From a virus, in the UHGV virus genome UHGV-0057547: a DNA stretch of 64,000 bases; one strand, given 5' to 3'. Below, piece after piece: positions 73-64,000 of this stretch. The position numbers and the translations under genes were made by a program. Within the stretch, counting starts at the first letter, position 1. Each line of letters opens with the position of its first letter. The notes beneath the pieces are model-generated. The model was not told where the DNA came from and ran no database searches. It saw nothing but the letters and a program-made list of their open reading frames with translations.

Positions 73-629
73 ATGAATAACAAACTTAGATTACCTATTA
101 AAAGATTTGAAAGTACAGATGAAGTTTTAGTTAATACAAACTTTAAAAAAGTTAAAATATACATTATGCATACAGGTGAAAACCTTAATGGTTCTGTATT
201 TTCAGTAGATAGTATAAATGATTCAATAGATACACTTGCAAACATTCCAATATTGGCATTTGTTGAAAAAACTGATGGACAAGATAACAAAGATTTTGCA
301 GGACATGAAACTGATTTAGATATATTTACAGATGAAGATGGAACAATTAAAGTAAGAGAATACTATAAAGAAGTACCTATTGGAGTAATACCTGAAAGTA
401 ATGATTATTTCTTTGAAGAAAAAGATGGAGAAACATACTTAGGGTGTTATGGTTACATATGGAAATGTTATTCTAATGATGCTTATGACATATTAGAAGA
501 AGACCAAGAAAAAGAAGTCTCTATGGAAATTTATATAAATAATTGTTCTTATGATAGAAAACAAAGATGTAATATTAATAAATTTGAATTTCTTGGAGTT
601 ACAGTGTTAGGTGCTAAATACCCAGGAGT
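73..629 (+). CDS. Prohead protease/scaffold-like protein, exon 1. The ORF-track tail to 684 is intronic read-through.
   Basis: RBS GAAAGGAGGTG lies upstream of the ATG at 73. The exon ends at GGAGT, directly before the intron P1/P2 sequence GATTAGCTCCCTATATGG. Confidence 0.45.
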
Positions 630-1022
630 GATTAGCTCCCTATATGGAGTGATTCATATAGCAAACTCTCTGAATTGCTTGTAAATCCTAAAGCTAACTA
701 AACTACAACGTGATTGGAAACAATGGGCGTGAATGTGGCGAAAGCAGAAAAAATTAGTTAGATGGTATATGGTTAAATCCTAAGTACTTTTACAATGGAA
801 GTCTAGCAGGTAAGATTCTAAATTACTATAAGTGATATGAATAAACTTCAACGACTATTGAAATAATTGTAAGAACCTTATTACAATTAAAGTAAAGTAC
901 ATTCAAGTGAATGGAAGTAGAGAGTGTCTTATTTAATTAATGTAAGATAATGATATAGTCTCAACGTTTAGCGAAAGCTAAAGAAGTTCATAAGAGAACT
1001 GCATAAGAATAACGAACTTATG
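630..1022 (+). mobile_element. Group I intron A1, with no ORF
   Basis: P GAATTGCTTG lies near 690, Q GTCTAGCAGGTAAGATTCTAAATT near 815, R AACTTCAACGACTAT at 862 and S GATATAGTCTC near 945. The 3' end carries the shared ...CATAAGAGAAC...AACGAAC motif. Confidence 0.6.
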
Positions 1023-2238
1023 TGAAGATATTGCTATGGGGGAAGATTGTGTACTTAGTATGAATTTTTCTAAAGAAGATAGTGAATATAAAGAATATTT
1101 ATCTTCTGTTGAAAAATTAAATAAATTATTAAAATGTCAAAGAGAGGAGGGATTAAGTGTGGATGTAAATAAAGAAACTTCTACTGTTGAAAACAAAGAA
1201 GAATTTGCTGAAGAAAACAAAGATGAAGAAGTTTGTCCTGAATGTGGTGAAAATCCTTGTGTATGCAAAAAAGAAAATCATGCAGTTAATGATGATGAAG
1301 AAGATAAAGCAGATGACAAAAAAGATGATGATAAAGAAGACGATAAAGACAAAGAAGATGAATCTTGTAAAAAGAAAAATCATGCAACTGAAGATAAAGC
1401 AGATGATGATAAAAAAGACGATAAAGCAGATGACGAGGAAGACGACGACAAAGATGATGATAAATCAGATGAAGAAGATGACAAAGATAAAGACAAAGAA
1501 GATGAATCTTGCAAAAAGAAAAATCATACAGTAGAAGATGACAAAGCAGACTTTGGACTTTCTTTAAATAATACATTTAAAGCTATAAGAAAACAATTAG
1601 AATCTTACACTTATGAATATGTGAGCTATTGGGGTGACACTTATACTTGGAGAAAATATTACGTAGTAGAATTAATCCCTGAAGATTCTGTTGTTGTTAT
1701 AGAAGATGAAGAAGAAAATGAATTCTATGGAGTAACTTATTCTATAAATAATGATGATGTTACTTTAGATTTGGATAATAAAGCATTATATATTCAAGAA
1801 TGGAGACCTAAAGAAACTAGTTCTGCTAGATTTGAAAATACTGATAAAAAAGAAAAATATACTGCTAAAGATGAAATGTATCAAGCAGTTGGAAAAGAAT
1901 TAAAAGAACTTAGACAATTTAAAGCTGATATAGAAGCTCAAGAAGAAAAGGCTCAATTCGATGAAAAAGTTAATGCTATCTTATCACAATTTGAATTCAA
2001 TGAAGAAGAAACTTCTGATTTAGTAGAAAAAGTTTATAACAAATCAATTAATTTAGATATGTTTGAAACTTGCTTATTTGCTTTAGAAGCTAAAAAGAAT
2101 AGAGCAGAAAAAGAAAAATTTGCTAAAATGGAAAAAGAAAACAGTTTAAATATAGTTGATTCTAAAAAAGAAGAACCAGCAAAACCAAAATCAAGATTTG
2201 ATTATCTATTAAAAGAATTTGGAAACAAAAATAAATAA
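1023..2238 (+). CDS. Prohead protease/scaffold-like protein, exon 2 (acidic D/E/K repeat tract followed by coiled coil)
   Basis: The frame is open from the intron's 3' end through the annotated 400-aa ORF. The DDEEDKADDKKDD...ESCKKKNH motif repeats three times. The C-terminal coiled coil is typical of scaffolding proteins. Confidence 0.45.
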
Positions 2239-2782: not shown

Positions 2783-2827
2783 AATATAAAATAAATAAAA
2801 TATAAGATAAAAAGGAGAATGAGACGA

Positions 2828-3267
2828 ATGTCAGAATTAAATATAACTGATGTAAGAGATATGGCTTACAGTCTATATAAAGGTAAAACTGCTAATTTCG
2901 ATGCAGAATCTGCAAATGAAGCTATAAAAAATATAATACTTAAAACAGCTGGATGTGAAGATGGTTGGGATATGTATAAATTCATGGATAACAAATACAA
3001 AGTATTTGCTATAATGAGAGAAATATTAACTCCAGTTGTAGCTGAAAATGTTTTAGCTAGATTTGAATCTTGGGTAGACATAGAAGATATAGCTTTAGGT
3101 GATACTAAAGACTTTGAAGTTATGAACCAAGAATTATTTGAAATAGGATATGTAGCTGATGGTACTTCTGAATTAAGAAGACAAAACTTAACTCATGGTA
3201 AAATTACTATGACTGGTTTCCAATTAGGTGCTAAATTATATACTGAATTTGATGACTTTAGAAGGGG
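2828..3267 (+). CDS. Major capsid protein, exon 1
   Basis: RBS AAAGGAG at 2811-2817 lies 10 nt before the ATG at 2828. The ORF-track stop at 3283 is inside the intron. The 3' exon continues the same protein. Confidence 0.55.
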
Positions 3268-4604
3268 TAACTTAGTTTACTAGACAGCCCCCTATGTTTG
3301 TAAAAAGCATAGCAAATCCTTTTAATTGCTGGAAACTCCTAAAGCTCAATTCACTACAACGTAAGGTTAAATCCTAAGCGTGAATGTTACGAAAGTAGAA
3401 AAAAGTAATTGAGATTACCCAAGGTTAAATCCTAAAGGTGAATGAATGGACAATCAGCAGGGAAGATTTTAATTAACACTTAATTTTTTATAAGTTTATG
3501 AGTATAATATAAATAAGTGGAGGTGATGAAAATGACAAGAAAGATTTGGAATGAAATTACAATAAAAGAATTTATAGAAAATGAAACAAATTATAAATTC
3601 ATATCAATGGTTAAATTAAATGGAATGAAATCAATAGTGCTAGTATGGTGCGGTAATACTAATCATAAACCTTATAAAGTTCGATTTGATGCATTTAAAG
3701 GTACTTCTAAAAAAGAAGGAACGAGATGTGAACAATGTAGAAGAGAAAAGGATACTATTTGGACTAAAGATGAAATTATAAAATATGTAGAATCTCAAGA
3801 TTATAAATTTATAAGATTTGTAAAATTTAATAAATATGCAAGTATAATAGAAATTCAATGTAATAAAGGACACGAATCATATGAAACATACTTTAGTAAT
3901 TTCTATAATAATAGAAGATGTTTTCAATGTCATATAATATGGTCTAAAAAAGATATTATTAATTTTATAGAATCTCAAAATTATAAATTTATAAGATTTA
4001 TAACATATGAAAAAAATAATAGTTTAATAGAGATAAAGTGTCCTAAAGGACATATGAATCAAGTTAGATTTAGAAAATTTAAAGAAGGAACTAGATGCAC
4101 AGAATGTAATAAGTCTAAAGGTGAGGAAAAAGTAAAAGATATATTAAAAGAAATGTGTATAGATTTTAAATCACAATACAAATTCAAAGATTGTAAATGT
4201 AAAAAAGAGTTGCCATTTGATTTTTACATACCTTCATTAAATATTGCAATAGAATATGATGGAATACAACATTTTGAAATATTACCACATTGGGGTGGTA
4301 TTGATAAACTTATAGAAACTAAAATACATGATGAAATAAAAACACAATATTGTAAAAGAAAAAGAATAAAACTTATTAGAATTCCTTATTGGGAATTTAA
4401 AAATATAGAAAACATACTTATAAAAGAATTAGTGTTAAATTAGAATAACCTTCAACGACTAGAGCATAAGCTCGTACACTCAAGTGGGTGGAAATGGAGG
4501 ATACCTAGAAATAGGTAGTGATATAGTCTTGTCTCATGTGAAAGCATGAGCAGTTCATAAGAGAACGGATTAGGAGTAACGACCCTAGTCGAAAATAAAC
4601 GCAG
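3268..4604 (+). mobile_element. Group I intron A2 with an endonuclease ORF in P6
   Basis: P AATTGCTGGAAA at 3326, Q AATCAGCAGGG at 3452, R CTTCAACGACTAGAGC at 4452, S GATATAGTCTTGTCTCATGTGAAAGCATGAGCAGTT at 4530. Confidence 0.7.
3517..4443 (+). CDS. Intron-encoded endonuclease with tandem zinc-ribbon modules and a Vsr/DUF559-like PD-(D/E)XK domain
   Basis: Three modules of the form Y[KT][FL]I..........C..GH......F..G..C..C are followed by LPFDFYIPSLNIAIEYDGIQH...IKLIRIPYWEF. The ORF has its own promoter and RBS GTGGAGGTG. Confidence 0.7.
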   Translation: MEVMKMTRKIWNEITIKEFIENETNYKFISMVKLNGMKSIVLVWCGNTNHKPYKVRFDAFKGTSKKEGTRCEQCRREKDTIWTKDEIIKYVESQDYKFIRFVKFNKYASIIEIQCNKGHESYETYFSNFYNNRRCFQCHIIWSKKDIINFIESQNYKFIRFITYEKNNSLIEIKCPKGHMNQVRFRKFKEGTRCTECNKSKGEEKVKDILKEMCIDFKSQYKFKDCKCKKELPFDFYIPSLNIAIEYDGIQHFEILPHWGGIDKLIETKIHDEIKTQYCKRKRIKLIRIPYWEFKNIENILIKELVLN

Positions 4605-5169
4605 AACTGATTTTGCTGAATGGATAAGCAGATTAGGAAAATCATTTGAAGTTAAAATAGGTGAATATATAGTTAGAGGTATAGAAGATGCTTACTCTAG
4701 TTTAGGTGCTAAATTCGGTGTGACTGGTGCATACCAAGATGAAAAAATGGTTGAATTAATAGAAAGAGTTGAAGCTAAAACTGGACAAAAAGCTACTATA
4801 TACGGAACTAAAACTGCTTTAGCTAAATTAAGAACTGGTGCAGATGGTGCATTCCAAGCATACTTATCAGATAGCGACAAAGAAAACATAAGCAAAACTG
4901 GTAGAGTTGGAGATTACTACGGAACTCCTGTTGTTGAAATACCTCAATCAGTTAACAGAAAAGATGAATTTATGTTAAGTAATAAAATGCTTTATGTAAT
5001 ACCTAACGGAACTAAAATAATAAAATTATTATTTGAAGGCGATGTAGATGTTATAGAAGTATCTGACCCAGCAGTAAGAAAAGATATGCAATTTGAATAT
5101 ATGTTCATGAGAAGAATACAATTAGGTGTTTGTAAAGCTTCTGTTTATGGAATATACAAAATGAACTAA
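4605..5169 (+). CDS. Major capsid protein, exon 2
   Basis: The frame is open from 4561 and the ORF-track GTG start at 4720 is internal. Sequence ...TDFAEWISRLGKSF...VYGIYKMN. Confidence 0.55.
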
Positions 5170-8638: not shown

Positions 8639-8783
8639 ATGGCTACACTATTTGCTATAAAAGATGCAATAGATTTAAAAATAACTAAAAAAGGTGAATC
8701 AGCAGTTTTCACTACAATAGACTACTTAAATGAATGTCAAATACAAATGGACTCAGAACAAGTATATGCTCTTAAAAAAGGAG
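8639..8783 (+). CDS. Major tail (tube) protein, exon 1
   Basis: RBS AAAGAAAGGTG precedes ATG 8639. The exon ends at AAAGGAG, directly before intron sequence TAATTTGCTCCCTATGTAAG. Confidence 0.45.
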
Positions 8784-10127
8784 TAATTTGCTCCCTATGT
8801 AAGTAAATTGCATAGCAAATCCTTTTAATTGCTGGAAACTCCTAAAGCCTTGCAAACCACAACGCAACTTGAAAAAGTAAACGTGATGGTGACGAAAGTA
8901 GAAAAAATTGTAAGGATTACCCAAGGTTAAATCCTAAAGGTGAATGAATGGACAATCAGCAGGTAAGATTTATATTTATTTTACTTTACTTTTAATAATT
9001 AATTTCGTATAATTTAAGTAAATGGAGGTGGTAGATATAAAATGGACAGAAGATAGAATTAAAGAATATGTTGAAAATCAAGGATATACTTATATAAAAA
9101 GAATTGAAGGAAAAGCAAGTATGTCGATTATAGAAGTTTGGTGTGGAAATCTTAATCATAAATCTTATAGGGTTATGTTTAAAAATTTTAAAGGTAATAA
9201 AGCAAAAAAACCAACAAGATGCCCATATTGTAGTAAAAATAAAAAATTAACCATTGAAGAAGTAAGAGTATTTGTTGAAAAATATGATTTTAGTTTATTA
9301 TCTGTAGAATATATTAATAATAGAACTCCATTAACACTACAATGTAAAAATGGACATATATTTTCAATAAGATTAGATAATTTTAAACAAAGTTTAAAAT
9401 GTCCAATGTGTTATAGACATTATGGTGCTTACACCGAAGATGAAGTTAAGCAATACCTTGAAAGTTTTGGTTATGAATTACTGAATAAATATATAGATAT
9501 ACATAAAAAAATAATAATTAAATGCCCTAAAGGTCATATTTATAAAACTTCATTTAATAGTTTTAAAAATAATGGAACTAGATGTTCTATTTGTAGAAAA
9601 TCAAAAGGTGAAGAAAAAATATCTAAAACATTAAAAGAATTAAAAATAAAATTCATAAGTCAATTTGTATTCGATGATTGTCAATATAAAACATATCTTC
9701 CATTTGATTTTTATTTACCTGAATATAATATATTAATTGAATACGATGGGATTCAACACTATGAACCTGTAGACTTTGGTGGTAAAGGAAATGAATGGGC
9801 AAATAAACAACTCGAATTAACAAAAATAAAAGACAATATAAAAACACAATATTGTGAAAATAATAATATAAAACTTATAAGAATATCTTATTGGGAATTT
9901 GATAGCATAGAAAATATATTAAGTAAAGAGTTAAAAGTAAGAAAATAAATATGAATAAACTTCAACGACTATTCCGTAAGGAAGTAAAGCCACAAGCTAT
10001 TGGTGGAAGAAATGGAGGATACCTAGAAATAGGTAGTGATATAGTCTGTTCTCATGTGAAAGCATGAGCAGTTTATATTGAATGAGTATAAACGATGTAT
10101 GTGTAGCGAACATATGTGAACACAAAG
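8784..10127 (+). mobile_element. Group I intron A3 with an endonuclease ORF
   Basis: P at 8826, Q at 8956 and R at 9963. S GATATAGTCTGTTCTCATGTGAAAGCATGAGCAGTT near 10043. The 3' end is GTGTAGCGAAC...CACAAAG. Confidence 0.65.
9022..9948 (+). CDS. Intron-encoded zinc-ribbon / Vsr-DUF559-like endonuclease (paralog)
   Basis: LPFDFYLPEYNILIEYDGIQHYE...IKLIRISYWEF, preceded by repeated C..C / GH..C modules. Confidence 0.7.
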   Translation: MEVVDIKWTEDRIKEYVENQGYTYIKRIEGKASMSIIEVWCGNLNHKSYRVMFKNFKGNKAKKPTRCPYCSKNKKLTIEEVRVFVEKYDFSLLSVEYINNRTPLTLQCKNGHIFSIRLDNFKQSLKCPMCYRHYGAYTEDEVKQYLESFGYELLNKYIDIHKKIIIKCPKGHIYKTSFNSFKNNGTRCSICRKSKGEEKISKTLKELKIKFISQFVFDDCQYKTYLPFDFYLPEYNILIEYDGIQHYEPVDFGGKGNEWANKQLELTKIKDNIKTQYCENNNIKLIRISYWEFDSIENILSKELKVRK

Positions 10128-10180
10128 ATAACTATATATCATTCTCAAGTGGTAGAACAGGAACATTAACAATGAACTGT
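10128..10180 (+). CDS. Putative mini-exon of the tail tube gene
   Basis: Open frame D-NYISFSSGRTGTLTMNCN lies between two intron cores. Both boundaries are uncertain. Confidence 0.25.
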
Positions 10181-10557
10181 AACTAGTACAGCGTATGTAA
10201 AGAAATTTACATAGGACACAACCTTAAAACCAGTAACTCCTAAAGCTCAACAACTACAACAAAGGATAGAATCAGAAACCTTTGTGAATGTGAGGAAACT
10301 CTGAAACAATAGTTGAGATGATATATGGCGAGAGCCTAAGTATTGTAACAATGGATGTTTGGTCGCCAAACTTAGAAATAAGAAGGTCAAACGACTATGA
10401 TTTGAAAGAATCATAAAGCCTCAAGCGAATGGAGGAAGAAATGGGTTGCCCCTAACAGATAATGCTGAGGGTGAAGAAATAGTCTAGTCACTCTAGGAAA
10501 CTAGGTGCTTAGAATTGACTAAGGTTTATAAGTTGCGATTATAAATAAATATTAACG
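10181..10557 (+). mobile_element. Group I intron A4 (divergent, no ORF)
   Basis: 5' region GTATGTAAAGAAATTTACATAGGACACAAC, R GGTCAAACGACTATGA at 10383, S GAAGAAATAGTCTAGTC. The 3' motif AAGGTTTATAAGTTGCGATTATAAATAAA matches the 3' end of intron A7. Confidence 0.5.
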
Positions 10558-10912
10558 TCAAGTAATGGATGAAGACTTCTTATGTATGATGCTTGGTGCT
10601 ACTAAAGGTGCAGATGGTAAAATATCTGTAACATCTTCAGTTCCAAACCAAAGTTATACAGCAGAAGGTACTTTCAGAACTACTTCATTAAATGGAGACC
10701 AATACAAAAAAATAAAATTCTACAACTTAAAAGCACAAGTTTCAGCTGACTTAACTTTATCTGCTTCTGATGTTTCTGAATTCTCATTAGTATTAGATAT
10801 AATGGCTGACGATGCTGGTAAAATATTAGATATAGAAAACACTGCTGGTGGAGTATCTGCTGGATTTAATGAACCTGAAATTGTTTCTATAAAAGCTAAA
10901 GCTGATAAATAA
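10558..10912 (+). CDS. Major tail (tube) protein, terminal exon
   Basis: ORF MDEDFLCMMLGATKGADGK... All three frames carry stop codons up to about 10555, so the exon must start after that point. Confidence 0.5.
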
Positions 10913-18238: not shown

Positions 18239-18620
18239 TTAGAATTAGCCAGGCTATATGGAGACATATAGTACAAATCTCTTTTGAATTGCTGGAAAGG
18301 ACTTAGAGCCTATTGAACTACAACGTAGATGGAAACATCAAACGTGAATGTTAAAAAATCAATAGGATTGTTCAATCAGCAGGTAAAATTCTAAGTGATA
18401 ATTTATCATATGAATAAACTTCAACGACTATCCCTTGGATTTGCTAATTTAGTAAATCAATAGGAGTACGGCTCAAGCGATTGGAGTGGGTGAGAATCCC
18501 TTAAATGGAAGTGGAAGAGGACTTATAAAAGTTCAAGATATAGTCTACTCTCGTAGGAAATCTACGAGCAGTCCTTTTTTTGGACGGTATGTATATAGCG
18601 AATACATATGAATATTAAGG
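18239..18620 (+). mobile_element. Group I intron A5, no ORF
   Basis: P2 hairpin CTATATGGAGACATATAG, P AATTGCTGGAAAGG at 18287, Q AATCAGCAGGTAAAATTCTAAG at 18375, R at 18421, S AAGATATAGTCTACTC at 18541. The 3' end is ...ATGAATATTAAGG. Confidence 0.7.
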
Positions 18621-20151: not shown

Positions 20152-20286
20152 CTCCACGATAACAAATCGAAAACTCAAGCCGGTGTATTCCAAGCATTAA
20201 TGACAGGTTGGGAAAGAGTTCGTCAATATCAAAAAGAATACAATGAAGGTTGGATGATAGGTTCAGCTCAAAGAGAGAAACAACAT
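20152..20286 (+). CDS. TMP exon 4
   Basis: Open frame LHDNKSKTQAGVFQALMTGWERVRQYQKEYNEGWMIGSAQREKQH. It ends at a codon boundary on U, before intron sequence TCTCCGTATGTACAG. Confidence 0.4.
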
Positions 20287-20658
20287 TCTCCGTATGTACA
20301 GAAATGTGCATAGGACATAGATTTAATTGCAGGTAATCCCTAAAGCTCTACACCACAATATATCTGAAAAGAATATATGAAGGTACGAAAGTAGAAAAAA
20401 CGTAGAGATTCTCATATGGTTAAATCCTAAGTGAGAGTAACAATGGGTGTTCATGCAGGTAAGATTCTAAGTGATAATTTATCATATGAATAAACTTCAA
20501 CGACTAGAATGCAAATTCGTAGGGTGTAAGCGATTGACACTCGAAAAGGTCTACCCTTAATATTAAGGTGAAGAAATAGTCTACTCTTATAGGAAACTAT
20601 AAGCAGTTTTCATATAAAGAAAACGGATTAAGTGTAGCGAACTTAATTGAATAAATGG
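20287..20658 (+). mobile_element. Group I intron A6, no ORF
   Basis: P variant AATTGCAGGTAATCCC at 20327, Q GTTCATGCAGGTAAGATTCTAAG at 20460, R at 20497, S GAAGAAATAGTCTACTC. The 3' end is GTGTAGCGAACTTAATTGAATAAATGG. Confidence 0.65.
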
Positions 20659-26600: not shown

Positions 26601-27270
26601 AGTTGATGAATATAATGATTATAAAGATTCAATAGATGATGCTAGTAAATCAATTGAAGAAGAAACTAATAAACAACTTGAATTAAAAGATTCAATGATG
26701 GAAATTAGAGAAGAAATGAGAAAACTTAGAGATGATGCGTGGGTTAAAACTTATGAAAATGGTCTAAAAGTTATTCAAAATCGTATTGATACAATAGATT
26801 CTTTATTAGATTTGGAAGATGAAAATCAATTTGGTTTACTAAATCAAAAAATTGAAGAATATAAGAATTTAACTAAGGCAACTGAAGATAGTTTAGCTTA
26901 TCAAAAACATAGAAAAGTTACTATGCAAAAAACATTAATTGATTACGGATTCACTATTAATGATGATGGTACAATAGATGGAACTGCTAATAAATTAGAA
27001 CAACTTAAAAATACATTATCTGAAACTGAATTTGGTATAGTAAGTGATACATTAGAAGATTATTTTGATACTGCTTTAGATACAATTCCTGAATTAGAAA
27101 GAGAATTAATAAAATATCAAAAAGATTTAAAAGATATACAAAATACTAAACTAGAAAAAACTAAAACTATTGAAGAAAAAATTACAGAAATATATAATGA
27201 TGAAATAGATAAAAGAACTAAAAAGATACAAGAAGAAGCAGAAGCACAAACTAAAGCACTAAATAAGGCT
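20659..27270 (+). CDS. TMP exon 5, about 2,204 aa. It carries internal tandem repeats and a K/S/T-rich tract.
   Basis: In frame from the intron's 3' G. Sequence NEIYMDSIAGKF... The ORF-track TTG start at 20647 lies inside the intron's 3' end. Confidence 0.55.
23290..23560 (+). repeat. Three tandem coding repeats in the TMP of about 60 nt each
   Basis: The repeated peptide is (V/A)EGDTSGAEKVEKKV(E/D)EVDGKEGKAK. Confidence 0.6.
24090..24620 (+). repeat. About eight tandem coding repeats in the TMP
   Basis: The repeat is ...TVTINCQDNATPKIN.V.K.GNKS... with degenerate copies. Confidence 0.55.
25240..25610 (+). repeat. Low-complexity K/S/T-rich coding tract in the TMP
   Basis: KKSSSKKKSTSKKKSSSKKK... 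runs for about 120 aa. Confidence 0.6.
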
Positions 27271-27498
27271 AAATTTAGCCTGGTTGTCGAGTAATCGGCT
27301 TCAAAAATAATAGATTTAATTGCAGGTAATTCCTAAAGCCTTACACCACAAGCACAGAGAAATCATGTGTTGAAGGTACGAAAGTAGAAAAAACGTAAGG
27401 ATGGATATAAGGTTAAATCCTAAGTATCCAAACATATTTATATATGTTAAAATGGATGTTCATGCAGGTAAGATTCTAAATTAAATTATTTTAAATAT

Positions 27499-27541: not shown

Positions 27542-28444
27542 GTGGAATATATGGGTCAAAAATTGAATAGAAAAAAAATAGAAAAATATATAAATCAATA
27601 TAATTATGAAGTTTTATATTGTAAACATGATAAAAATAAATATAAATGGAAACTCATTTTAATGTGCCCTAATTTTCATATTTTCAAAATGGATTTTGAT
27701 AAATTTCAAAATAATAGAAGATGCCCTTGTTGTAATGGTTCTAAGTATAATGAAGATTTTGTTAGAGAATATATGTTAAATAATGGAGATATACTTTTAT
27801 CTCATTATCATAATGGAAATGAAAAATTAAAAGTAATGTGTAAATATGGTCATATTTTTTATCCAATATTTAATAATTACTATAATAAAAATTCAAGATG
27901 TCCATATTGTAATGGGAATATAACTATGGAGCATAAAAGTTTTATTAATAGATTAAATACAATTAACCCTAACATAGAAATATTGGGTGAATATAAAAAT
28001 AGTCATACTAAAATTAAATGTAAGTGTAAAATAGATGGGCATGAATGGGAGGCAAAGCCTACTAATCTATTAGGAAGTAAAAATGCAAAACCAACTGGAT
28101 GTCCAAAGTGTTATAGACGAACTTATCGAGGTGAAACACATCCTTTATTTGACCATAGTAAAACAAAAGAAGATAGAGAAGATGATAGAAGTTATTTTGA
28201 ATATAATGAATGGAGAACTAAATGTTTTGAGAGAGATAAATATACTTGTCAAGTTACCGGACAACAAGGTGGAAGATTAGTAGTACATCATTTATATTCT
28301 TATAATAAATATTATTGTTTAAGAACGACATTGGAAAATGGTATAACAATATCAGAAGAAATACATAAAAAATTCCATTCTATTTATGGAAATGGAAATA
28401 ATACATTCGAACAATGGGAAGAATTTATTAAAAGTTTAAAATAA
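27542..28444 (+). CDS. Intron-encoded HNH endonuclease with N-terminal zinc-ribbon modules
   Basis: The zinc-ribbon modules resemble those of the Vsr-like family. The C-terminus carries CQVTGQQGGRLVVHHLYSYNKYYCLRTTLENGITISEEIHKKFH. Confidence 0.65.
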   Translation: MEYMGQKLNRKKIEKYINQYNYEVLYCKHDKNKYKWKLILMCPNFHIFKMDFDKFQNNRRCPCCNGSKYNEDFVREYMLNNGDILLSHYHNGNEKLKVMCKYGHIFYPIFNNYYNKNSRCPYCNGNITMEHKSFINRLNTINPNIEILGEYKNSHTKIKCKCKIDGHEWEAKPTNLLGSKNAKPTGCPKCYRRTYRGETHPLFDHSKTKEDREDDRSYFEYNEWRTKCFERDKYTCQVTGQQGGRLVVHHLYSYNKYYCLRTTLENGITISEEIHKKFHSIYGNGNNTFEQWEEFIKSLK

Positions 28445-28642: not shown

Positions 28643-29006
28643 ATTATAAATAAAATTTTTCGTAAAGAAGCTTATCAAAGATGGAGAGACGATGTTGACT
28701 ATAAAGATGATTATAACAAACAATTAAAAACTGTTGAAGATTTACAAAAGAAAATAGAAATAGCGAAACGTGATGATAGTTTAACTGGACAAAAACGTTT
28801 AGCAGATTTGATGAAAGAATTAAAAGAAGAACAAGAAAATCTTGAAGATATGGTTCAAGACAAAATTAACAGTGACGTGAATAATATGTTTGATGACCAA
28901 ATAGACAAAATAGAAGAAAATTCTGATGAAGAAGTTAAGAATTTGGAAAAAACATGGTCAGAAAGCAAAATAGCTGAAATGGTTAAACAAGCACTTGATA
29001 CTGGAG
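28643..29006 (+). CDS. TMP exon 6
   Basis: IINKIFRKEAYQRWRDDVDYKDD...KQALDTG. The frame is continuous with exon 5 when the intron ends at the G of ATGCG. Confidence 0.45.
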
Positions 29007-29217
29007 TAAATTAGCTCCTTTTACTAAGTAATTAGTATTAAAACTCATTGAATTGCTGGAACTTCCTAAAGCTAACTAAACTACAATATGGCTAGAAATG
29101 GCGAATATGAATGTGGCGAAAGCAGAAAAAATTAGTTAGATATTCATATGGTTAAATCCTAAGTGAATATAAATGGATAATCAGCAGGTAAGTGCCTAAA
29201 TTTATTTTATAAAATAA

Positions 29218-29268
29218 TTGACTTTTAATAAGATAAAACGTATAATATAAGTAAAGAAAGGGGTTGAG
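29218..29268 (+). promoter_or_regulatory. Sigma70-like promoter and RBS driving an intron-encoded endonuclease
   Basis: TTGACTTTTAATAAGATAAAACGTATAATATAAGTAAAGAAAGGGG is nearly identical to the cassette at 27499. Confidence 0.5.
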
Positions 29269-30360
29269 ATGATGAAAAAACATGATTATAAATTTATTAA
29301 AGAATATGTTGAAAGTTTTGGATATAAATTATTATCAACAGAATATAAAAATGCTAATACTAAATTAAAAATAGAATGTCAAGAAGGACATATGTTTGAA
29401 AGAACATTTAGTAAGTTTAAACAAACTCAAAATTGTCCATATTGCACTAATACTAGAAAATGGAATATTTTAGAAATAAAAGAGTATTTAAAAAACATAG
29501 GTTATACATTATTAAGTACAGAGTATAAAAATAATCAAACCAAATTAGATATGATTTGTTCAGAGGGACATAAAATACAAATGACTTTAGGAAATATCCA
29601 ACAAGGTAAAAGATGTCATATATGTTCAAGAAAAACAGCTTCAGAAAAAAGAAAACATGATTATGAATTCGTTAAGCAATATATTGAAAATGAAGGTTAT
29701 AAATTATTATCCAAAACATATATAAATCAAGATGAAAAATTAAAAATAAGATGTTCGAAAGGTCATATATTTTTAATGAGTTTTTGTAAATTTAAACAAG
29801 GTCAAAGATGTCCTCAATGTTGTAAAAATAAAAAAATGTCTCATAAAGAATTTTTAGAAAAATTCTATAATCAAAATTACAATACTGAAAATATAGAAAT
29901 ATTGAGTGAATATATAAATGCTAAGACGAAAATAAAATGTAAATGTCTAAAAGACGGTTGTATTTGGTATGTTATACCTAATAGTTTACTAAACGGAACT
30001 GGTTGTCCTCAATGTAACGAATCTAAAGGAGAAAAAAGAGTTGCTAAATATTTAGATAGTAGAAATATAGAATATGAAAGACAATATAAATTTAATGATT
30101 GTAAAAGTAACAAAGAGTTACCTTTTGATTTTTATATACATAGTTTAAATATAGCTATAGAATATGATGGTGGACAACATTATATGATAGTAAACCATTT
30201 TGGAGGACTTAATGGATTTATAACTACTAAAATACATGACACTATAAAAACACAATATTGCAAAAATAACAATATTCGTTTAATAAGAATACCATATTGG
30301 GATTTTGATAATATAGAAAATATACTAAGTCAATTATTAAATATAAATATGAATAAATAA
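29269..30360 (+). CDS. Intron-encoded zinc-ribbon / Vsr-DUF559-like endonuclease (paralog, 4 modules)
   Basis: ELPFDFYIHSLNIAIEYDGGQHY...IRLIRIPYWDF. Confidence 0.7.
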   Translation: MMKKHDYKFIKEYVESFGYKLLSTEYKNANTKLKIECQEGHMFERTFSKFKQTQNCPYCTNTRKWNILEIKEYLKNIGYTLLSTEYKNNQTKLDMICSEGHKIQMTLGNIQQGKRCHICSRKTASEKRKHDYEFVKQYIENEGYKLLSKTYINQDEKLKIRCSKGHIFLMSFCKFKQGQRCPQCCKNKKMSHKEFLEKFYNQNYNTENIEILSEYINAKTKIKCKCLKDGCIWYVIPNSLLNGTGCPQCNESKGEKRVAKYLDSRNIEYERQYKFNDCKSNKELPFDFYIHSLNIAIEYDGGQHYMIVNHFGGLNGFITTKIHDTIKTQYCKNNNIRLIRIPYWDFDNIENILSQLLNINMNK

Positions 30361-30508
30361 GGCAAAACTTCAACGACTATATATACTAGTAGTCTAGTTA
30401 GTGGTGAGCATCCTTATGGGATGATGATATAGTCTACTCTCATGTGAAAGCATGAGCAGTTCATAAGAGAACGGTATAAGGTTTAACGAACTTTATATGA
30501 ATATTAAG

Positions 30509-30910
30509 GTGTTTACAGATATTGATGGAAATATCAAAACTCTTCAAACAGCATTAATGGATTTTGCTAATACAAGTTCTGATTATTTTGGAGTTATGGG
30601 TGATTCATTAAAGAAAGAATTGTTAAATAATCTTAATGTAGCATTAGAGACTATGAAAGAACTTCAAAAAATGTCAGATAATTATACTGCTCCTAATATA
30701 GATTATAGCAATACAGTACTTCCAAAAGATAGTGGTATTAATACTTCTCCACAAGTTTCTAGTAATGTTGAAACTAATAATATTACAATTGGAGATACTA
30801 ATATTACAATTCAAGGTGGTGCAGATGATGTTACTTTAGGAAAAGTAGATGAAATGTTAAAAGATTACAAAGCAAGCATTTGTAAGGAAATTGTTAAAAA
30901 TATGAAATAA
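30509..30910 (+). CDS. TMP terminal exon
   Basis: VFTDIDGNIKTLQTALMDF... The ORF-track ATG at 30497 is intronic sequence ATGAATATTAAG. Confidence 0.45.
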   Translation: MFTDIDGNIKTLQTALMDFANTSSDYFGVMGDSLKKELLNNLNVALETMKELQKMSDNYTAPNIDYSNTVLPKDSGINTSPQVSSNVETNNITIGDTNITIQGGADDVTLGKVDEMLKDYKASICKEIVKNMK

Positions 30911-53755: not shown

Positions 53756-55138
53756 ATGGCAACAGAAGGTAAAAAAATAAGTCAATTAACAGAAGTGTTA
53801 AGTGTTGACAAAGAAAATGACTATATAATCGTACAACGTGGGACAGATAATAAAAAGTTAAAATTAGCCAATGTGATGACTACGGATAATATGGGCGACA
53901 ATTATGTTGATTTAAAATCATATGAAGATAAAAGTGAATTCAGATTAATTATAAATGATGATGGAAAAGTTCAAGTATTTCCAAAAGAATGCGTTGAAGG
54001 TCATACTTATGCTGAAAATGATAATTTACAAATGCCCTTAAAATTAGCTAGCTATATAGGTAATTCTCAAACTGCATTATCTACTGCTAATAATGGAGGT
54101 ATTGTTATAAATCAAATTTATGGTGGTGGAGATTTAATTCCTAGTTCAACTTTACAAGCACCTAGCGTTAGTCATAGTTTTGTTGAACTATATAATTGTA
54201 ATGTTGTAGATATTAATCTAAAGGGATTATATTTACATTATAAAGGTAATGATGAAACTGTTTGGAAAACATTAGCATTAAGAGGACTTTTACCAGCTCA
54301 TACTGCTTTTTTAATTAGAGGTAAACAACACGGAGATTTAATGAGTGACTTAGTAAGATGTAAAATATATGATTATGACCAAGAATGGATAGATGCTGAT
54401 AAAAATGAACCAATAGCATTTAGTAGAAATGGTATGTCAATGTATTTATCAACTAACTCAGTACCTCCTGAAGTAAATGAAAATCCAAATAGATATCTTA
54501 TAACTACTGATAGTACTGGTGTATCAACATTATCATATGTTGATGGATATTATGTAGATTTATTAGGTGTAGGTAGTGCTGATGGAACTAAGAACCCAGT
54601 TGCATATGAAAAATTCTATTGGACTTGTATGGATAAAGATACTGCAATAAGAAGAATAGATTTTTACAATAATAAGAATAACAAATATGATTCAAAAGCT
54701 ATAAATTATAAAACTTGCAATATAGAACATTATAGACCAAGAAGTTTAAGAGATGGAATTTGGGATAACTATTGTGATAAAGCAAGTATAAATGAAAATA
54801 TACCTAATCTTATAGATATAACTTTTGGTGAACAACCTACAACAAGACTTTTTACATGGCAATCTGTTTTAACAGATAATGGTTGTGTGAGACTTAGAAG
54901 AATAAAAGATAAAAGTGGAGTAGCAGTAACTGAAAATTGGAAAGAATATGAAAGTGAACGTGAAATAGTTAATAATCATGGTACATTTATGACAATACAT
55001 AGAACTAAAATAACTAATATAACACCTGGTTTATATGAATATCAATGTGGAAAAGAAGGTTATTGGTCAGATATACAAATGATAGAAATGAGAGAATATA
55101 CAGATACTAGCACTATTAAAATGCTATGGACTACGGAT
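53756..55138 (+). CDS. Lamin-tail-domain / purple acid phosphatase-like metallophosphoesterase, exon 1
   Basis: The lamin-tail-domain motif is SFVELYNCNVVDINLKGLYLHY. The PAP N-terminal domain motif is ...TPGLYEYQCG. Confidence 0.5.
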
Positions 55139-55463
55139 TAATTTTAGTCCCTATGTAAAGAAATTTATATAGCAAACCCTTTGAATTGCTGGAAAACCCT
55201 TAGAGCCTTAATACTACAATAGAGAGGAAACTACTCTATGAAAGTTTGAAAAGTTTAAGGATTGGGTAATCAGCAGGTAAGATTCTAAATTACTATAAGT
55301 AATATGAATAAACTTCAACGACTAAGTATCCTAGTAGTCTAGGTAGTGGAGGGCATCCCTTCATGGGATGATGATATAGTCTACTCTCATGTGAAAGCAT
55401 GAGCAGTTTTCTTTGAGTAAGAAAACGGATAGAATAATAGCGATATTCTATTGAATATAAAGG
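55139..55463 (+). mobile_element. Group I intron A9, no ORF
   Basis: P GAATTGCTGGAAAACCC at 55185, Q AATCAGCAGGTAAGATTCTAAATT at 55268, R at 55313, S GATGATATAGTCTACTCTCATGTGAAAGCATGAGCAGTT. The 3' end is ...GAATATAAAGG. Confidence 0.65.
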
Positions 55464-55586
55464 CAACAAGGATTCACACAACCTGAATATGAGGCTTGGA
55501 GAACTTGTGTTAAAGCTATGCAAACTAGAACTGATTTTTATAATAGTTATGGTTTGCCTGTATTTGATTTTCATTTGAATACTGGA
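55464..55586 (+). CDS. Metallophosphoesterase exon 2 (41 codons)
   Basis: QQGFTQPEYEAWRTCVKAMQTRTDFYNSYGLPVFDFHLNTG. Splicing onto DISQNA recreates a GDxxY-like motif. Confidence 0.45.
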
Positions 55587-56747
55587 GTAACAAATTAAGC
55601 TCCCTATGTAAGTAAATTGCATAGCAAACCCTTTGAATTGCTTGTAATCCCTAAAGTCAACTAAACTACAACGTGGCTAGAAATGGCGAACGTGAATGTG
55701 GCGAAAGCAGAAAAAATTAGTTGAATGGTATATGGTTAAACCCTAAGTACTTTTGTAATGGGTGTCTAGCAGGTAAGATTCTAAATTAAATTATAAAATT
55801 AAGTTTATTTTTTATAAAAATATAAGTATAATATAAATAGGGGGTGAATATTATGGGTAAACGTAAAATGAGTGAAGAACATAAAAGGAAACGATTAGAT
55901 ATAGTTAAAAAGAAATGTGATGAATTAGGCTATACATTATTGACAAAAGAGTATATTAACAATAAAACAAAATTAGAAATTGTATGTGATAAAGGACATT
56001 TATGGACACCAACTTTTGATAATTTCATTATGAAAGATAGAAGATGTAGAAAATGTGCTGATAAACAAAATGGTATAAATCAAAGGTTATCTTGGGAAGA
56101 AGTGCTAAATAGAGTAGAACCTTATGGATATAAAATGATTAGCAATAAAGAAGATTATATCAATCAAGATTCTAAACTCAAAGCCTTATGTCCAAATGGA
56201 CATATTTATAAATTTAGTATAAATAATTTTCAACGAGGTAAAAGATGTTCTCAATGTAAAATGTCCGGTGGCGAACAGGAAATATCAAGAATATTGAATA
56301 AATATTCTATAGAATATAAATTCAATTATAAATTCAATACGAATAATATAATAAAAACAAAGCCTTTTGATTTTAAAATATTAAATAAAAACATATGTAT
56401 TGAATATGATGGACAACAACATTATCATTTTCAATTTGATAATAATCTTTTAGATTTAATGAATAGAAAACATATAGATACTATAAAAACAAAATATTGC
56501 GAAGACAATAATATAAAACTTATTAGAATTCCTTATTGGGAATTTGATAATATAGAAAATATACTTATAAAAGAACTTAATTTAAAATAATTTAATATGA
56601 ATAAACTTCAACGACTATATATACTAGTAGTCTAGTTAGTGGAGGGCATCCCTTCATGGGATGATGATATAGTCTACTCTCATATGAAAGTATGAGCAGT
56701 TCATAAGAGAACGGTATAAAGTTTAACGAACTTTATATGAATATTAG
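55587..56747 (+). mobile_element. Group I intron A10 with an endonuclease ORF
   Basis: The 5' sequence is GTAACAAATTAAGCTCCCTATGTAAGTAAATTGCATAGC. P GAATTGCTTG at 55648, Q GTCTAGCAGGTAAGATTCTAAATT at 55768, R at 56603. The 3' end is ...ATGAATATTAG. Confidence 0.7.
55844..56590 (+). CDS. Intron-encoded zinc-ribbon / Vsr-DUF559-like endonuclease (paralog)
   Basis: KPFDFKILNKNICIEYDGQQHYH...IKLIRIPYWEF. Confidence 0.7.
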   Translation: MNIMGKRKMSEEHKRKRLDIVKKKCDELGYTLLTKEYINNKTKLEIVCDKGHLWTPTFDNFIMKDRRCRKCADKQNGINQRLSWEEVLNRVEPYGYKMISNKEDYINQDSKLKALCPNGHIYKFSINNFQRGKRCSQCKMSGGEQEISRILNKYSIEYKFNYKFNTNNIIKTKPFDFKILNKNICIEYDGQQHYHFQFDNNLLDLMNRKHIDTIKTKYCEDNNIKLIRIPYWEFDNIENILIKELNLK

Positions 56748-56846
56748 GACATTTCACAAAACGCCTCTAATTTATTTGAATGGTTATATTACACTGATTA
56801 TGCTAAAGAATTTTGTAGAAATATACCTCATTTAACAGCTTGTGGT
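56748..56846 (+). CDS. Metallophosphoesterase exon 3 (33 codons)
   Basis: DISQNASNLFEWLYYTDYAKEFCRNIPHLTACG ends in GUGGU. The putative IGS GCCAC lies in the intron and includes a U-G pair. Confidence 0.45.
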
Positions 56847-57161
56847 AAATGTTAGCCACCTTTACATAGTGATATGTAATGAAAAACTCATTGAATTGCT
56901 GGGAAGCCCTAACGTAAAGACGAGGGTAATCAGCAGGGAAGTCTCTTTAAAATGGGAAACCTTCAACGACTATCCCTTGGATGTTGAAATACATCAATAG
57001 GAGTACGGCTCAAGTGATTGGAGTGGGTGAAATTCCCTTAAATGGAAGTGGTGAGCATCTCAATGGAGATGAAGATATAGTCTACTCTCATATGAAAGTA
57101 TGAGCAGTTTTGTATATATACAAAACGGATTAAGTGTAGCGAACTTAATTGAATATAAAGG
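56847..57161 (+). mobile_element. Group I intron A11, no ORF, with a short P5
   Basis: P AATTGCTGGGAAGCC, Q AATCAGCAGGG, R at 56963, S GAAGATATAGTCTACTCTCATATGAAAGTATGAGCAGTT. The 3' end is GTGTAGCGAACTTAATTGAATATAAAGG. Confidence 0.65.
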
Positions 57162-57563
57162 AATAATGACCTTGTTGATAAAAAATATGGATTTGCTTAT
57201 GACCATTATGTAACATTTGAAAATCAACCAAGATTAAATGATTATCATAAAGAAGTTTTAGCAACAACAGATTTTCCTATGGTATCAACTTATTCATTTG
57301 ATTTAGGGTCTACTCATTTCATATGTTTAAATTCAAATCAAGAACAAATGTATGATGATTATGGTATAAATCAAACAGAATTCTTATTAAAACAAGCATA
57401 TTTCCTAGATAGAGATTTATGGAAAGTTAGTAAAAGAACTACAAAACCTAAATGGGTAATTGTATATGCACATTTAAGTCCATTTACTGTAACAAGAGCA
57501 AAAAGATTACAACATTGGATACCTATACTTGAAAAATATGGTGTAGATTTATTCTTATGTGGT
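57162..57563 (+). CDS. Metallophosphoesterase exon 4
   Basis: NNDLVDKKYGF... contains the GNHD/E-like motif. ...KWVIVYAHLSPF... and ...DLFLCG follow. Confidence 0.5.
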
Positions 57564-57936
57564 CAAGTTGACCTGGTTGTCGAGTAATCGGCTTCAAAAA
57601 TTACAGATTTAATTGCAGGTAATTCCTAAAGCCTTACACCACAATAGAGGGGGAAACTACTCTATGATGGTATGAAAGTAGAAAAAACGTAAGGATTCTT
57701 ATATGGTTAAACCCTAAGTAAGAGTTAACAATGGATGTTCATGCAGGTAAGATTCTAAGTTGCTATAAGCGATATGAATAAACTTCAACGACTAGAGCAT
57801 AAGCTCGTACACTCAAGCGAGTGGAAAAGGTCTGTCCCTATATAAATAGGGTAAAGAAATAGTCTAATATCCTAATGAAAGTTAGGGCTAGAGTAATTCT
57901 AGGCTTGTAAGTAGCGATTACAAGAACAATATAATG
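57564..57936 (+). mobile_element. Group I intron A12, no ORF. Its 5' 110 nt are nearly identical to A7.
   Basis: CAAGTTGACCTGGTTGTCGAGTAATCGGCTTCAAAAATTACAGATTTAATTGCAGGTAATTCC. R at 57783, S AAAGAAATAGTCTAAT. It ends at ...ATATAATG. Confidence 0.6.
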
Positions 57937-58548
57937 CACAATCACACATATTCAAGAAGTATACCAATCAAATGTGGATATGAAAAATCTGCATATGCAG
58001 ATATGATTAATGAAAAAAATTATAATACTTATGTACCAAAAGGTGGTAAAAATTATACTTTAGTGAATGAAACAAAATTAAATGGTAGTGAAATAACTAG
58101 AAGTGCTAATATATCTCAAGGTGTTTATTATGTTATGTTCCAAGCAGGTGGGGCTAAACAAAGTGGTAAAGAAAAAGCAATTGATATGAGTACTATAACA
58201 TTCTTAAATAGTACTGGTGGAACAGTAACAAGTGGTACTGAATATACTAAACATTTCCATAGTGGAACAAATAGACCTTGGTGGTATGAATACACTGGTG
58301 CTTTACCAGTACAACCTTGTTTTGCAACTTTGGATATTTCACCAACATCAATAAAAATAAGTATGAACTATGTTAAAGCAGTTGAAGCTATAGATAAAGA
58401 AACTGGTGTAATGACAGTAGATAAATATGACCCAAATAAACATACAATTGTTAACTTTGATAATTTAACAATAAATTATAGCGATAGAAATCCAGCTTAT
58501 AGAACTGGAGTATCTGCTCCTTATTATAATGAAAATAAAAATTATTAA
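57937..58548 (+). CDS. Metallophosphoesterase terminal exon
   Basis: Splicing ...LFLCG onto HNHTYSRS restores a GHxHxYxRS purple-acid-phosphatase motif. Confidence 0.5.
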   Translation, partial: HNHTYSRSIPIKCGYEKSAYADMINEKNYNTYVPKGGKNYTLVNETKLNGSEITRSANISQGVYYVMFQAGGAKQSGKEKAIDMSTITFLNSTGGTVTSGTEYTKHFHSGTNRPWWYEYTGALPVQPCFATLDISPTSIKISMNYVKAVEAIDKETGVMTVDKYDPNKHTIVNFDNLTINYSDRNPAYRTGVSAPYYNENKNY

Positions 58549-63280: not shown

Positions 63281-63738
63281 ATAATACAGGTGCGTTAAAA
63301 TATGATGTGGATATAGAAGTTGACCCTGAACATTTCAATACTGCTGATTCAGTATTATGGACTAGAATTAGAGATTTATTCCATAATGATATAGTTGCTG
63401 AATATAATAATATGAGAAATCAAAATTTAACACCTGAAAAAATATATGAAAGCGTATTTACAAATCAAATAGAAAAAATACCTGAAAGTCAATATAATCT
63501 TAGTACTCAAAAGAAATATCTTGATACAGGTGAATATATTATGATGTCTAATGGTAATAGATATTATAATTTAAAACGTTGGATAAAAGAAAGATTTATA
63601 TATTGTGATACTTTATTTGATTACACTCCTACAACTGCTAGTTATGTAACTGTACGTTCAGGAGTAGAAGGTAAGGCTTATTTGGATATAGAAACTTATT
63701 ATCCTATGTATATAACTATAGAGTGGAGGAAACAATAT
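63281..63738 (+). CDS. CotH-like protein, downstream exon. It ends at a conserved 5' splice site.
   Basis: Open frame NTGALKYDVDIEVDPEHFNT... The exon ends ...EWRKQY at AAACAATAT|TCCTCGTATGTAGAG, which matches the A6 junction. Confidence 0.4.
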
Positions 63739-64000
63739 TCCTCGTATGTAGAGAAATCTGCATAGGACACAACTTTAATTGCAGGTAATGGGTAAAGCTC
63801 TACACCACAAGCATAGAGAAATCATGTGTTGAAGGTACGAAAGTAGAAAAAACGTAGAGATTCTCATATGGTTAAATCCTAAGTGAGAAGTGATTAAATT
63901 CACACAATCCCTGTTCATGCAGGTAAGATTCTAAGTGATAATTTATCATATGAATAAACTTCAACGACTATCCTGGAAAGATAGGTTAAAATCCCTATCA
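63739..64000 (+). mobile_element. Group I intron A13, truncated by the window end
   Basis: P TTAATTGCAGGTAATGGG at 63785, Q GTTCATGCAGGTAAGATTCTAAG at 63915, R AACTTCAACGACTATCC at 63961. Confidence 0.6.

Follow-up and report, generated by a model that had tools for sequence, protein, structure and literature searches.

Group I introns in a phage structural module with predicted 5′ splice sites one nucleotide upstream of the P1 U·G pair

Introduction

Where does a group I intron begin when the U expected at the end of its 5′ exon appears to lie one nucleotide inside it? The base at exon position −1 of group I introns is nearly always U, by exception C (PMC4227781). In a 64,000-nucleotide stretch of the viral genome UHGV-0057547 (the whole of which is called 'the window' below), which carries about 13 related group I introns of the IA2 type, an initial annotation made from the letters alone placed the 5′ splice sites of three introns, A2, A8 and A10, after a G, with the U of the putative P1 wobble one nucleotide downstream, and left two explanations: either P1 is shifted or atypical, or the 3′ ends depart from the consensus. 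Comparison with homologous proteins and intron-less alleles, together with P1 folds and the ribozyme core, favors the first. We consider it probable (roughly 85%) that A2, A8 and A10, along with A1 and A3, are IA2-type introns in which the 5′ splice site precedes the P1 U·G pair by one nucleotide.

Literature searches for natural group I introns without U at −1 returned a single paper, on group B IStrons (Tourasse, Stabell & Kolstø 2014), which comprise BcISt1 of Bacillus cereus and relatives in Lysinibacillus, Selenomonas, Clostridium botulinum and phages of the latter (PMC4227781). These elements contain an IA2 ribozyme with P7.1/P7.2 and an extended P9, are inserted after AGGG, TGGG or GAGG, begin with U (UAA...), and have a U-G pair displaced one base pair past the splice site, directly below the P1 loop; for BcISt1, splicing after G was proven by reverse transcription PCR (RT-PCR), the complementary DNA (cDNA) being without the U (PMC4227781). 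Such elements finish with CGG, and a long AU-rich inverted-repeat stem surrounds their ORFs. Among later IStron papers (2023 and 2026), a term search of the 2026 one showed no treatment of the 5′ shift.

A 5′ exon that ends in U, paired with G, ranks among the most conserved traits of group I introns, and it guides annotation tools and curators in placing splice sites. Applied to the introns described here, this rule would throw the genes for capsid, tape measure and phosphatase out of frame in an abundant metagenomic phage clade.

Results

Junctions fixed by homologous proteins and intron-less alleles

A10 is one of four introns (A9 to A12) in a metallophosphatase gene (Table 1), the spliced product of which is a clean 872-amino-acid open reading frame (ORF) with Metallophos and Pur_ac_phosph_N (purple-acid-phosphatase N-terminal) domains. 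Its junction reads ACT GGA G|TA ACA, with GGAG ending at 55587. Because NTGD(I/V)SQN is kept in all of ~50 uninterrupted phosphatase homologues (down to 37% identity, none with an extra residue), the codon after GGA must be GAY; the A10 mRNA would read GGA G|AC, and an exon ending in GGAGU is therefore ruled out. Frame arithmetic leaves only 55588..56748 or the equivalent 55587..56747 as workable introns, and with U at −1 the intron must end in A and would encode Gly-Val, not the invariant Gly-Asp. At the same site in five relatives the sequence is GGAG[UAAC...UUAGG]AU (introns are bracketed here and below), GAU being synonymous with the GAC of the window. The A10 junction first placed at 55586/7 is thus moved to 55587/55588, and the suggestion of U at −1 combined with a 3′ end other than G is impossible for this intron.

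Among sites that the initial annotation did not list, A3 is a decisive one, with G at −1. Near-identical intron-less alleles (L026, L027, L023 and L021) read AAAAAAGGAGATAACTAT (AAAAAAGGAGATAAC), containing GGAGAT without the T that follows GGAG in the window, where the sequence is AAAAAAGGAG[TAATTTGCTCC...CACAAAG]ATAACTAT, i.e. ...GGAG[UAAUUUGCUCC...CACAAAG]AUAAC. Because the intron-less alleles lack that T, the U is intronic and any alternative needs a terminal A. IMG/VR yielded no intron-less allele for A1, A10 or A11, and protein conservation was used instead for A1 as for A10. Distant homologues of the A1 host protein in phiCD211 and Sundance align as ...G---AMG, which makes the junction codon G|CU (a conserved Ala); with U at −1 the codon would specify Val and the intron would end in C.

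Relatives from IMG/VR (L003-L007 and L026-L027) have introns at three positions where the window has none, two of them in the tape-measure gene, following ACTGG(G/A) and ATGGG, and one in the virion gene at 8639, following ACAGGAA; both ORF-less and ORF-containing introns occur at the same sites. Two of these junctions are unambiguous when set against the intron-less sequence of the window: site S7b, ACUGGG[UAAUGUUGCCC...AAACG]CAAAAACG, has G at −1 (GGG|U), and site L026x, ACAGGAA[UAACUUAUU...GUUCC...GUUAAGG]CAUUG, has A (GGAA|U).

The property also extends to A6, near the 5′ end of the tape-measure gene, where intron-less alleles (L042-L045) read AGA GAA AAT GAA and the window reads AGA GAG[AAACAACAUUCUC...AAAUGG]AAT GAA. 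U at −1 is impossible in this intron, which starts AAAC and has a P1 without a U·G pair. As a side observation, A6 (20273-20290), A4 (10177-10191) and A13 (63725-63748) form a sub-family with the P2 sequence GUAUGUA.AGAAAU.U.CAUAGG, in which the guide begins with U (UUCUC, UACAG and UUCCUC) and P1 has no U·G pair; read in another register, A6 would show a G-1·U wobble in reversed orientation, where GAA is replaced by GAG in the intron-carrying allele.

In the major capsid gene, the A2 junction reads AGA AGG GG|T AAC at 3267/3268, where it was originally placed. The spliced ORF reads ...DDFRRG|RTDFAEW..., and 25 aligned uninterrupted homologues, one at 98% identity, have DDFRRG|R(T/V)DF. Five intron-less alleles have AGA AGA GGT AGA at this site and four intron-carrying alleles AGA AGG GG[U...ACG]C AGA. 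The only G 3′ of the P9.1 hairpin that yields the RRG|RTDF product is G4601; with U at −1 the intron must end ...ACGC.

The A8 junction in the tape-measure gene, ACT GGA G|TA AAT at 29006/29007, likewise stays where it was first drawn. Its product, ...QALDTG|VFTDIDG, matches 198-amino-acid uninterrupted relatives with QALDTG(V/I)FTDIDG; intron-less DNA reads GGA GTA TTT or GGA ATT TTT, and intron-carrying relatives have G|UG, G|UA or G|UC, Val in each case. With a terminal G, 29007..30509 keeps the frame. An exon ending at U29007 would put the intron end at A30507 or U30510, or at G30474 or G30480 inside the P9.1 hairpin; the latter two were rejected, as they would add 10-12 residues and are refuted by the intron-less alleles.

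Given a terminal G, which we infer for both introns from the features of the core described below, the exon would end at G3267 in A2 and at G29006 in A8. Frame arithmetic with a terminal G allows only G3267, G29006 and G55587 as exon ends in the three introns, apart from an equivalent reading with A at −1 for A8 and A10. As the last exon base in a P1 U·G pair, U is accordingly excluded in A10, A3, A1 and A6, excluded in A2 and A8 if the terminal base is G, and present in A9. The expectation of G, not U, at −1 in A2, A8 and A10 is borne out by homologues, intron-less alleles and frame arithmetic, for A2 and A8 on the same proviso.

Identical junction sequences turn up in independent assemblies (IMG/VR, ENA and Logan), and the observed junctions are neither chance nor assembly error.

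A common core, a terminal G and the register of P1

P7 forms the guanosine pocket, which binds the terminal G. Shifted and canonical introns do not differ in either of its strands, CAACGACUA and AUAGUC, and A2, A8 and A10 share core blocks (blastn) with the introns detected by Rfam. The canonical control is A9, in the same gene as A10, where the invariance of TTD|QQG in homologues demands the Asp codon GAU and intron-less alleles read ACT GAC^CAA; on these alignments A9 is unambiguously canonical, with U at −1. A9 is ~97% identical, from the 3′ side of P6 through P9, to the ORF-less intron at the A10 site of relative L029, and it ends at the second G of its ...AAAGG tail, UGAAUAUAAAGG, with homologous tails in A8 (UGAAUAUUAAGG) and A10 (UGAAUAUUAGG). 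Because P7 is identical, the A9 and A10-site cores are ~97% identical and the A9 tail is homologous, the terminal base should be G. The last intron base is G at every in-frame junction consistent with the homologues, unambiguously so for A3, A9, A10, A12 and A6. The 3′ consensus ...TTAAG originally proposed is one G short: the ends are ...AUAUUAAGG in A8 and ...AUAUUAGG in A10. The proposed consensus, ATATGAATATTAAG, occurs exactly twice, in A5 and A8 (18606-18620 and 30495-30509), each time followed by a second G, which is the frame-keeping terminal G in A8; in A5 either G is possible.

The Rfam alignment of P1 proved unreliable, and manual assignment together with RNAfold was used in its place. 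GGAGU folds with GCUCC and GGGGU with GCCCC, and the U·G pair falls at intron position +1, in agreement with the wobble one nucleotide into the intron initially proposed. The A2 stem has five base pairs (with G3287-C3291), U3268·G3287 being the top pair; in A8 the loop of the five-base-pair stem is closed by U29007·G29014. The guide sequence of A2 is in the same register as those of A3, A10, A1 and canonical A9. Counted from the P1/P2 junction, the pairs are [C-G][C-G][U-A][G·U-1] | [A-U+1] in A9 and [C-G][C-G][U-A or C-G][C-G-1] | [G·U+1] in A10, A3, A1 and A2. The scissile bond thus follows the fourth base pair above P2 in all five, and the third in A12 and A7.

By-eye inspection of J4/5, the wobble receptor, revealed no correlation with the shift: A2, A3 and A8 have GCUGGAAA, as do canonical A9 and A5. 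P10 pairing, also judged by eye, was tried as a means of choosing among 3′ sites and dropped, as this AU-rich sequence gives an excess of chance matches.

At the remaining sites, −1 is less constrained. In A4, A7 and A8 the base after each junction, 5′ and 3′ alike, is U, which leaves their formal reading ambiguous; if the intron ends in G, −1 would be G, C and G, respectively. A12, A7 and A11 had been described as having an unambiguous U at −1. This holds for A12 (57561-57573), where the U pairs with A (GGUC/GACC) rather than G. At A7, intron-less alleles reading GC(N)|AAA imply C if the intron ends at G28662, or U if its last base is U, and A11 is ambiguous because its junction codon is GGN and its tail GG; the same combination leaves A5 undecidable. 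A7 (27267-27280), a close relative of A12, has C-G at the helical position of the A12 splice site, and the wobble stands there in neither.

Alternative readings

The first rival reading keeps the canonical 5′ site, after the wobble U, and moves the 3′ site one nucleotide past the conserved G, so that the introns would end in C (A2), U (A8) and A (A10). An exon ending at U29007 with an intron ending at U30510 gives an identical A8 mRNA, and in A2 this reading restores the GGT codon found in five of five intron-less alleles, being one substitution cheaper than the reading with G at −1 (GGC). It is nonetheless unlikely. For A10 it produces Gly-Val-Ile instead of the invariant Gly-Asp-Ile; for A3, A1, S7b and L026x it does not restore the intron-less sequence or the conserved residue; and it requires three different terminal nucleotides of introns with an unchanged P7 pocket, the canonical member of which, A9, ends at the homologous G. 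For A2 and A8, then, U at −1 with a non-G 3′ end is formally equivalent and mechanistically disfavored.

A second rival, about as improbable, ends the A8 and A10 exons one base earlier (GGA|GUAA, with A at −1) and takes the first G of the GG tail as the terminal G. Since G is repeated at both junctions, the mRNAs are identical. In A3, however, the equivalent reading needs a terminal A, and in A2 nothing equivalent exists; of the two Gs in the homologous tail A9 takes the second, and its register puts the site after the fourth base pair. Least credible is fully canonical splicing that leaves an extra U in the mRNA, with the frame rescued by ribosomal frameshifting or the genes defective: the core is indistinguishable from that of canonical relatives and the U·G pair is present, but efficient +1 correction would be needed at at least eight unrelated contexts in essential genes (capsid, tape measure), the downstream exons are intact and conserved with synonymous-only variation, the same arrangement recurs in many independent assemblies, and the BcISt1 cDNA is without the U (PMC4227781).

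Placement of the 5′ splice site one nucleotide upstream of the U·G pair faces difficulties of its own, beyond the identical A8 mRNA and the GGT alleles of A2. A ruler from P2 misfits A5 unless G18253 is assigned to P2; A11, if canonical, would be the sole intron without an intron base pair above the splice site; and in a canonical core a wobble beside the cleavage site would be expected to draw cleavage after the U. Set against these points are protein invariance (Gly-Asp in A10, Ala in A1), intron-less DNA (A3, A6, S7b and L026x), P7 and A9, and on this evidence the shifted or atypical P1 is the better of the two explanations first offered.

Discussion

A possible mechanism

If the window introns self-splice, as we presume, the guide GCUCC or GCCCC would pair with four exon nucleotides, GGAG or GGGG, the 5′ G of the guide would wobble with intron U+1, and the pair at the cleavage site would be G-1-C. 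Exogenous guanosine would attack the G-1/U+1 phosphodiester, leaving the 5′ exon, ...GGAG-OH, bound to the guide; the terminal G (G4601, G30509 or G56748) would then enter the unchanged P7 guanosine pocket, and the exons would be ligated in frame. The helical position of cleavage would be fixed: it would come after four base pairs counted from the P1/P2 junction, with one or two intron base pairs beyond it. Canonical sibling A9 would use the same helical position, where its pair is U·G, and in the shifted introns the wobble would stand one base pair higher.

Such a fixed-position ('ruler') mechanism may be more general. We suggest, tentatively and at somewhat less than even odds, that this IA2 lineage cleaves at a fixed height above P1/P2 whatever the pair, and that the IStron shift was inherited from phage introns rather than arising from IS607 targeting. 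The pair at the fixed position is U·G in A9, G-C in A1, A2, A3, A8 and A10, A-U in the L026 intron, C-G in A7 and U-A in A12; A4 and A6 have no wobble anywhere in P1. If this holds, the near-isogenic A9 and A10 would offer a natural system for studying splice-site choice independent of the wobble.

The Tetrahymena ribozyme provides a point of comparison. Watson-Crick pairs at its cleavage site are reported still to allow reaction, and helix position is reported to contribute to site choice (Knitt, Narlikar & Herschlag 1994; Pyle et al. 1994; Doudna, Cormack & Szostak 1989). Those cleavage-site mutants are engineered and reduced in rate and fidelity, in contrast to the arrangement in the window, which is natural, recurrent and under selection.

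Relation to IStrons and to canonical phage introns

Like group B IStrons, the shifted window introns have an exon ending in G and a U-G pair one base pair into the element. The IStron of C. botulinum plasmid p1BKT015925 (L041), with annotated IS607 TnpA and TnpB, reads AAGAUGGG|UAAUUAAAC ... GUAUCGG|UUGUGAA (UGGG|UAAU...CGG|), and its core blocks are 75-92% identical to those of the window introns. In other respects the two differ. Group B IStrons carry both TnpA and TnpB, and Pfam searches of the window intron ORFs yielded neither; ORFs occupy the P6 loop in the window introns and lie downstream of P9.2 in the IStrons; 3′ ends are AAGG, UAGG, AACG or AAAG in the former and CGG in the latter. 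In the window family −1 can also be A or C at other sites, and the sites themselves are conserved, in phage virion-module genes. The window introns are non-IStron members of a known rare kind.

Canonical phage IA2 introns (T4 td/nrdB/sunY, Twort orf142/nrdE, SPbeta bnrdE/F) belong to the same fold class (RF00028), and share with the window introns a UAA/UAG start, a terminal G and mobile ORFs in peripheral loops. In these introns the exon ends with the wobble U, whereas in A1, A2, A3, A8 and A10 that U opens the intron. Within the window, the classical U at −1 occurs in A9, in a U·G pair, and in A12, paired with A; A6 is without any U·G pair. Blastn similarity extends to the Twort nrdE-region intron and to unannotated stretches of other Staphylococcus phage genomes. 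One of these phages, the cultured PMBT8 (L034, MK893987.1 8408-12120), has related introns with the same ORF type in an unannotated region, with P1 helices AGAGU/GCUCU and GGAGU/GCUCU (locus 1740-1790 and 3000-3050), and may be an accessible experimental system.

An exception previously documented for IS607-associated IStrons would extend to homing-type phage introns with nuclease-like ORFs or none, at many independent sites, with G, A or C at −1 and with canonical siblings in the same gene. Pairs of canonical and shifted introns make testable the question, posed in 2014, of what selects the 5′ splice site once the wobble is displaced.

The intron family and its phage

Table 1. Coordinates of introns, pairing elements and genes in the window (numbered from its first nucleotide).
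Feature	Coordinates	Strand	Description
Intron starts	629, 3268, 8784, 10180, 18240, 20278, 27270, 29007, 55139, 55588, 56847, 57564, ~63740		All introns in the window
Intron A1	629..1033	+	Scaffold/protease-like gene; GGAG|UGAUUAGCUCC ... AUAUUG|CU
Intron A2	3268..4601	+	Starts UAAC, ends AAACG; capsid exons 2819..3267 + 4602..5169
A2 P1 5′ strand	3264..3268	+	Exon GGGG (3264-3267) + intron U3268; predicted 5′ splice site 3267/3268
A2 internal guide sequence	3287..3291	+	GCCCC, adjoining P2 (CUAUG... from 3292); sequence and fold
A2 terminal G	4601	+	3′ splice site 4601/4602
A2 ORF	3517..4443	+	308 amino acids, P6 loop; homing-endonuclease-like, not transposase
Intron A3	8784..10127	+	Virion gene 3′ of capsid gene; exons 8639..8783 + 10128..10179 + 10558..10912
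Intron A6	20278..20658	+	Near tape-measure gene 5′ end; −1 is G20277 (or A20276)
Intron A8	29007..30509	+	Tape-measure gene; starts UAAA, ends UUAAGG; internal ORF 29269..30360
A8 P1 hairpin	29003..29018	+	Exon GGAG + U29007, loop AAAUUA, guide G29014-C29018
Metallophosphatase gene	53756-58548		Four introns, A9, A10, A11 and A12
Intron A9	55139..55463	+	Canonical control; U55138·G55147 at splice site; ends AAAGG
Intron A10	55588..56748	+	Starts UAAC, ends UUAGG; internal ORF 55844..56590
A10 P1 hairpin	55584..55603	+	Exon GGAG + U55588, loop, guide G55599-C55603 adjoining P2; fold and sequence
Intron ORFs (five)	3517-4443, 9022-9948, 27542-28444, 29269-30360, 55844-56590		P6 loop (between P6 and J6/7)

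The introns were recovered by a self-blast of the window with the ends of A2 as query, and their density is exceptional. Their hosts are the scaffold/protease-like gene, the capsid gene, the virion gene at 8639 (two introns), long ORFs of the tape-measure region (four) and the metallophosphatase gene (four). Scores against Rfam RF00028 were 98 bits for A11, 95 for A9, 53 for A12 and 30 for the 3′ half of A10; only three introns reached the gathering threshold, and the whole-window Rfam scan detected 3-4 of 13, the ORF-containing introns falling below threshold because their copies are broken up. In the Rfam alignments, extra sequence lies between J6/7 and P3′, and by eye hairpins can be made out after P9 (compare P7.1/P7.2 and P9.0-P9.2 of IA2 introns).

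Each of the four metallophosphatase introns lies at a short, near-invariant alignment block (TTD|QQG, NTG|D, ACG|NND and LCG|HNH), which we take to resemble the metal-binding motifs of the enzyme family. Relatives carry differing subsets of these four introns.

The window is the structural module of an SPbeta-like phage, AT-rich (G+C ~28%) and with every long ORF on the + strand. In Pfam searches of the capsid-module proteins, the capsid protein matched YonB and the neighboring genes YomV, YomW and YomX, all SPbeta-named families. The nearest GenBank relatives are large phiCD211-like and Sundance-like phages, at ~35% identity, and megablast against GenBank phages returned no close relative of the window. 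IMG/VR contains near-identical genomes of 147-198 kb, and ENA and Logan further contigs of up to ~200 kb. Samples with this phage include ERZ1310302, SRR24884224 and IMG 3300045988. The sole relative of the tape-measure C-terminus with an organism name (P0324) comes from a Sarcina sp. metagenome-assembled genome, a possible clue to the host of this low-G+C phage clade.

Mobility and intron-encoded proteins

Both occupied and intron-less alleles were found for A2, A3, A4, A6, A7, A8, A9 and A12, with synonymous differences in the flanks. Such presence and absence among near-identical genomes is typical of homing, and the intron ORFs may encode endonucleases. Some flank differences strengthen P1 in the intron-carrying alleles: AGA to AGG at A2 (3263-3265), ACT GAC to ACG GAT at A9 (55133-55138) and GGA to GGG at S7b (L004 2624-2626), all synonymous, which suggests either co-conversion or selection on P1.

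Several window introns are ORF-less, as are the introns at the A10 site of L029 (808..1173) and at the A8 site of L003 (3220..3575). The A2 ORF has no Pfam match; the other four of the five intron ORFs (those of A3, A7, A8 and A10) match DUF4379/CapR zinc fingers, with sub-cut-off matches to PvuRts1I-like (PvuRts1I-N) in the A3 ORF, HNH_2 in the A7 ORF and DUF559 in the A10 ORF. The ORFs look like one family, with repeated treble-clef zinc fingers and a C-terminal region weakly matching DUF559, PvuRts1I-N or HNH_2. Upstream of each, inside the P6 loop, lies AT-rich sequence with a GGAGG-like ribosome-binding site.

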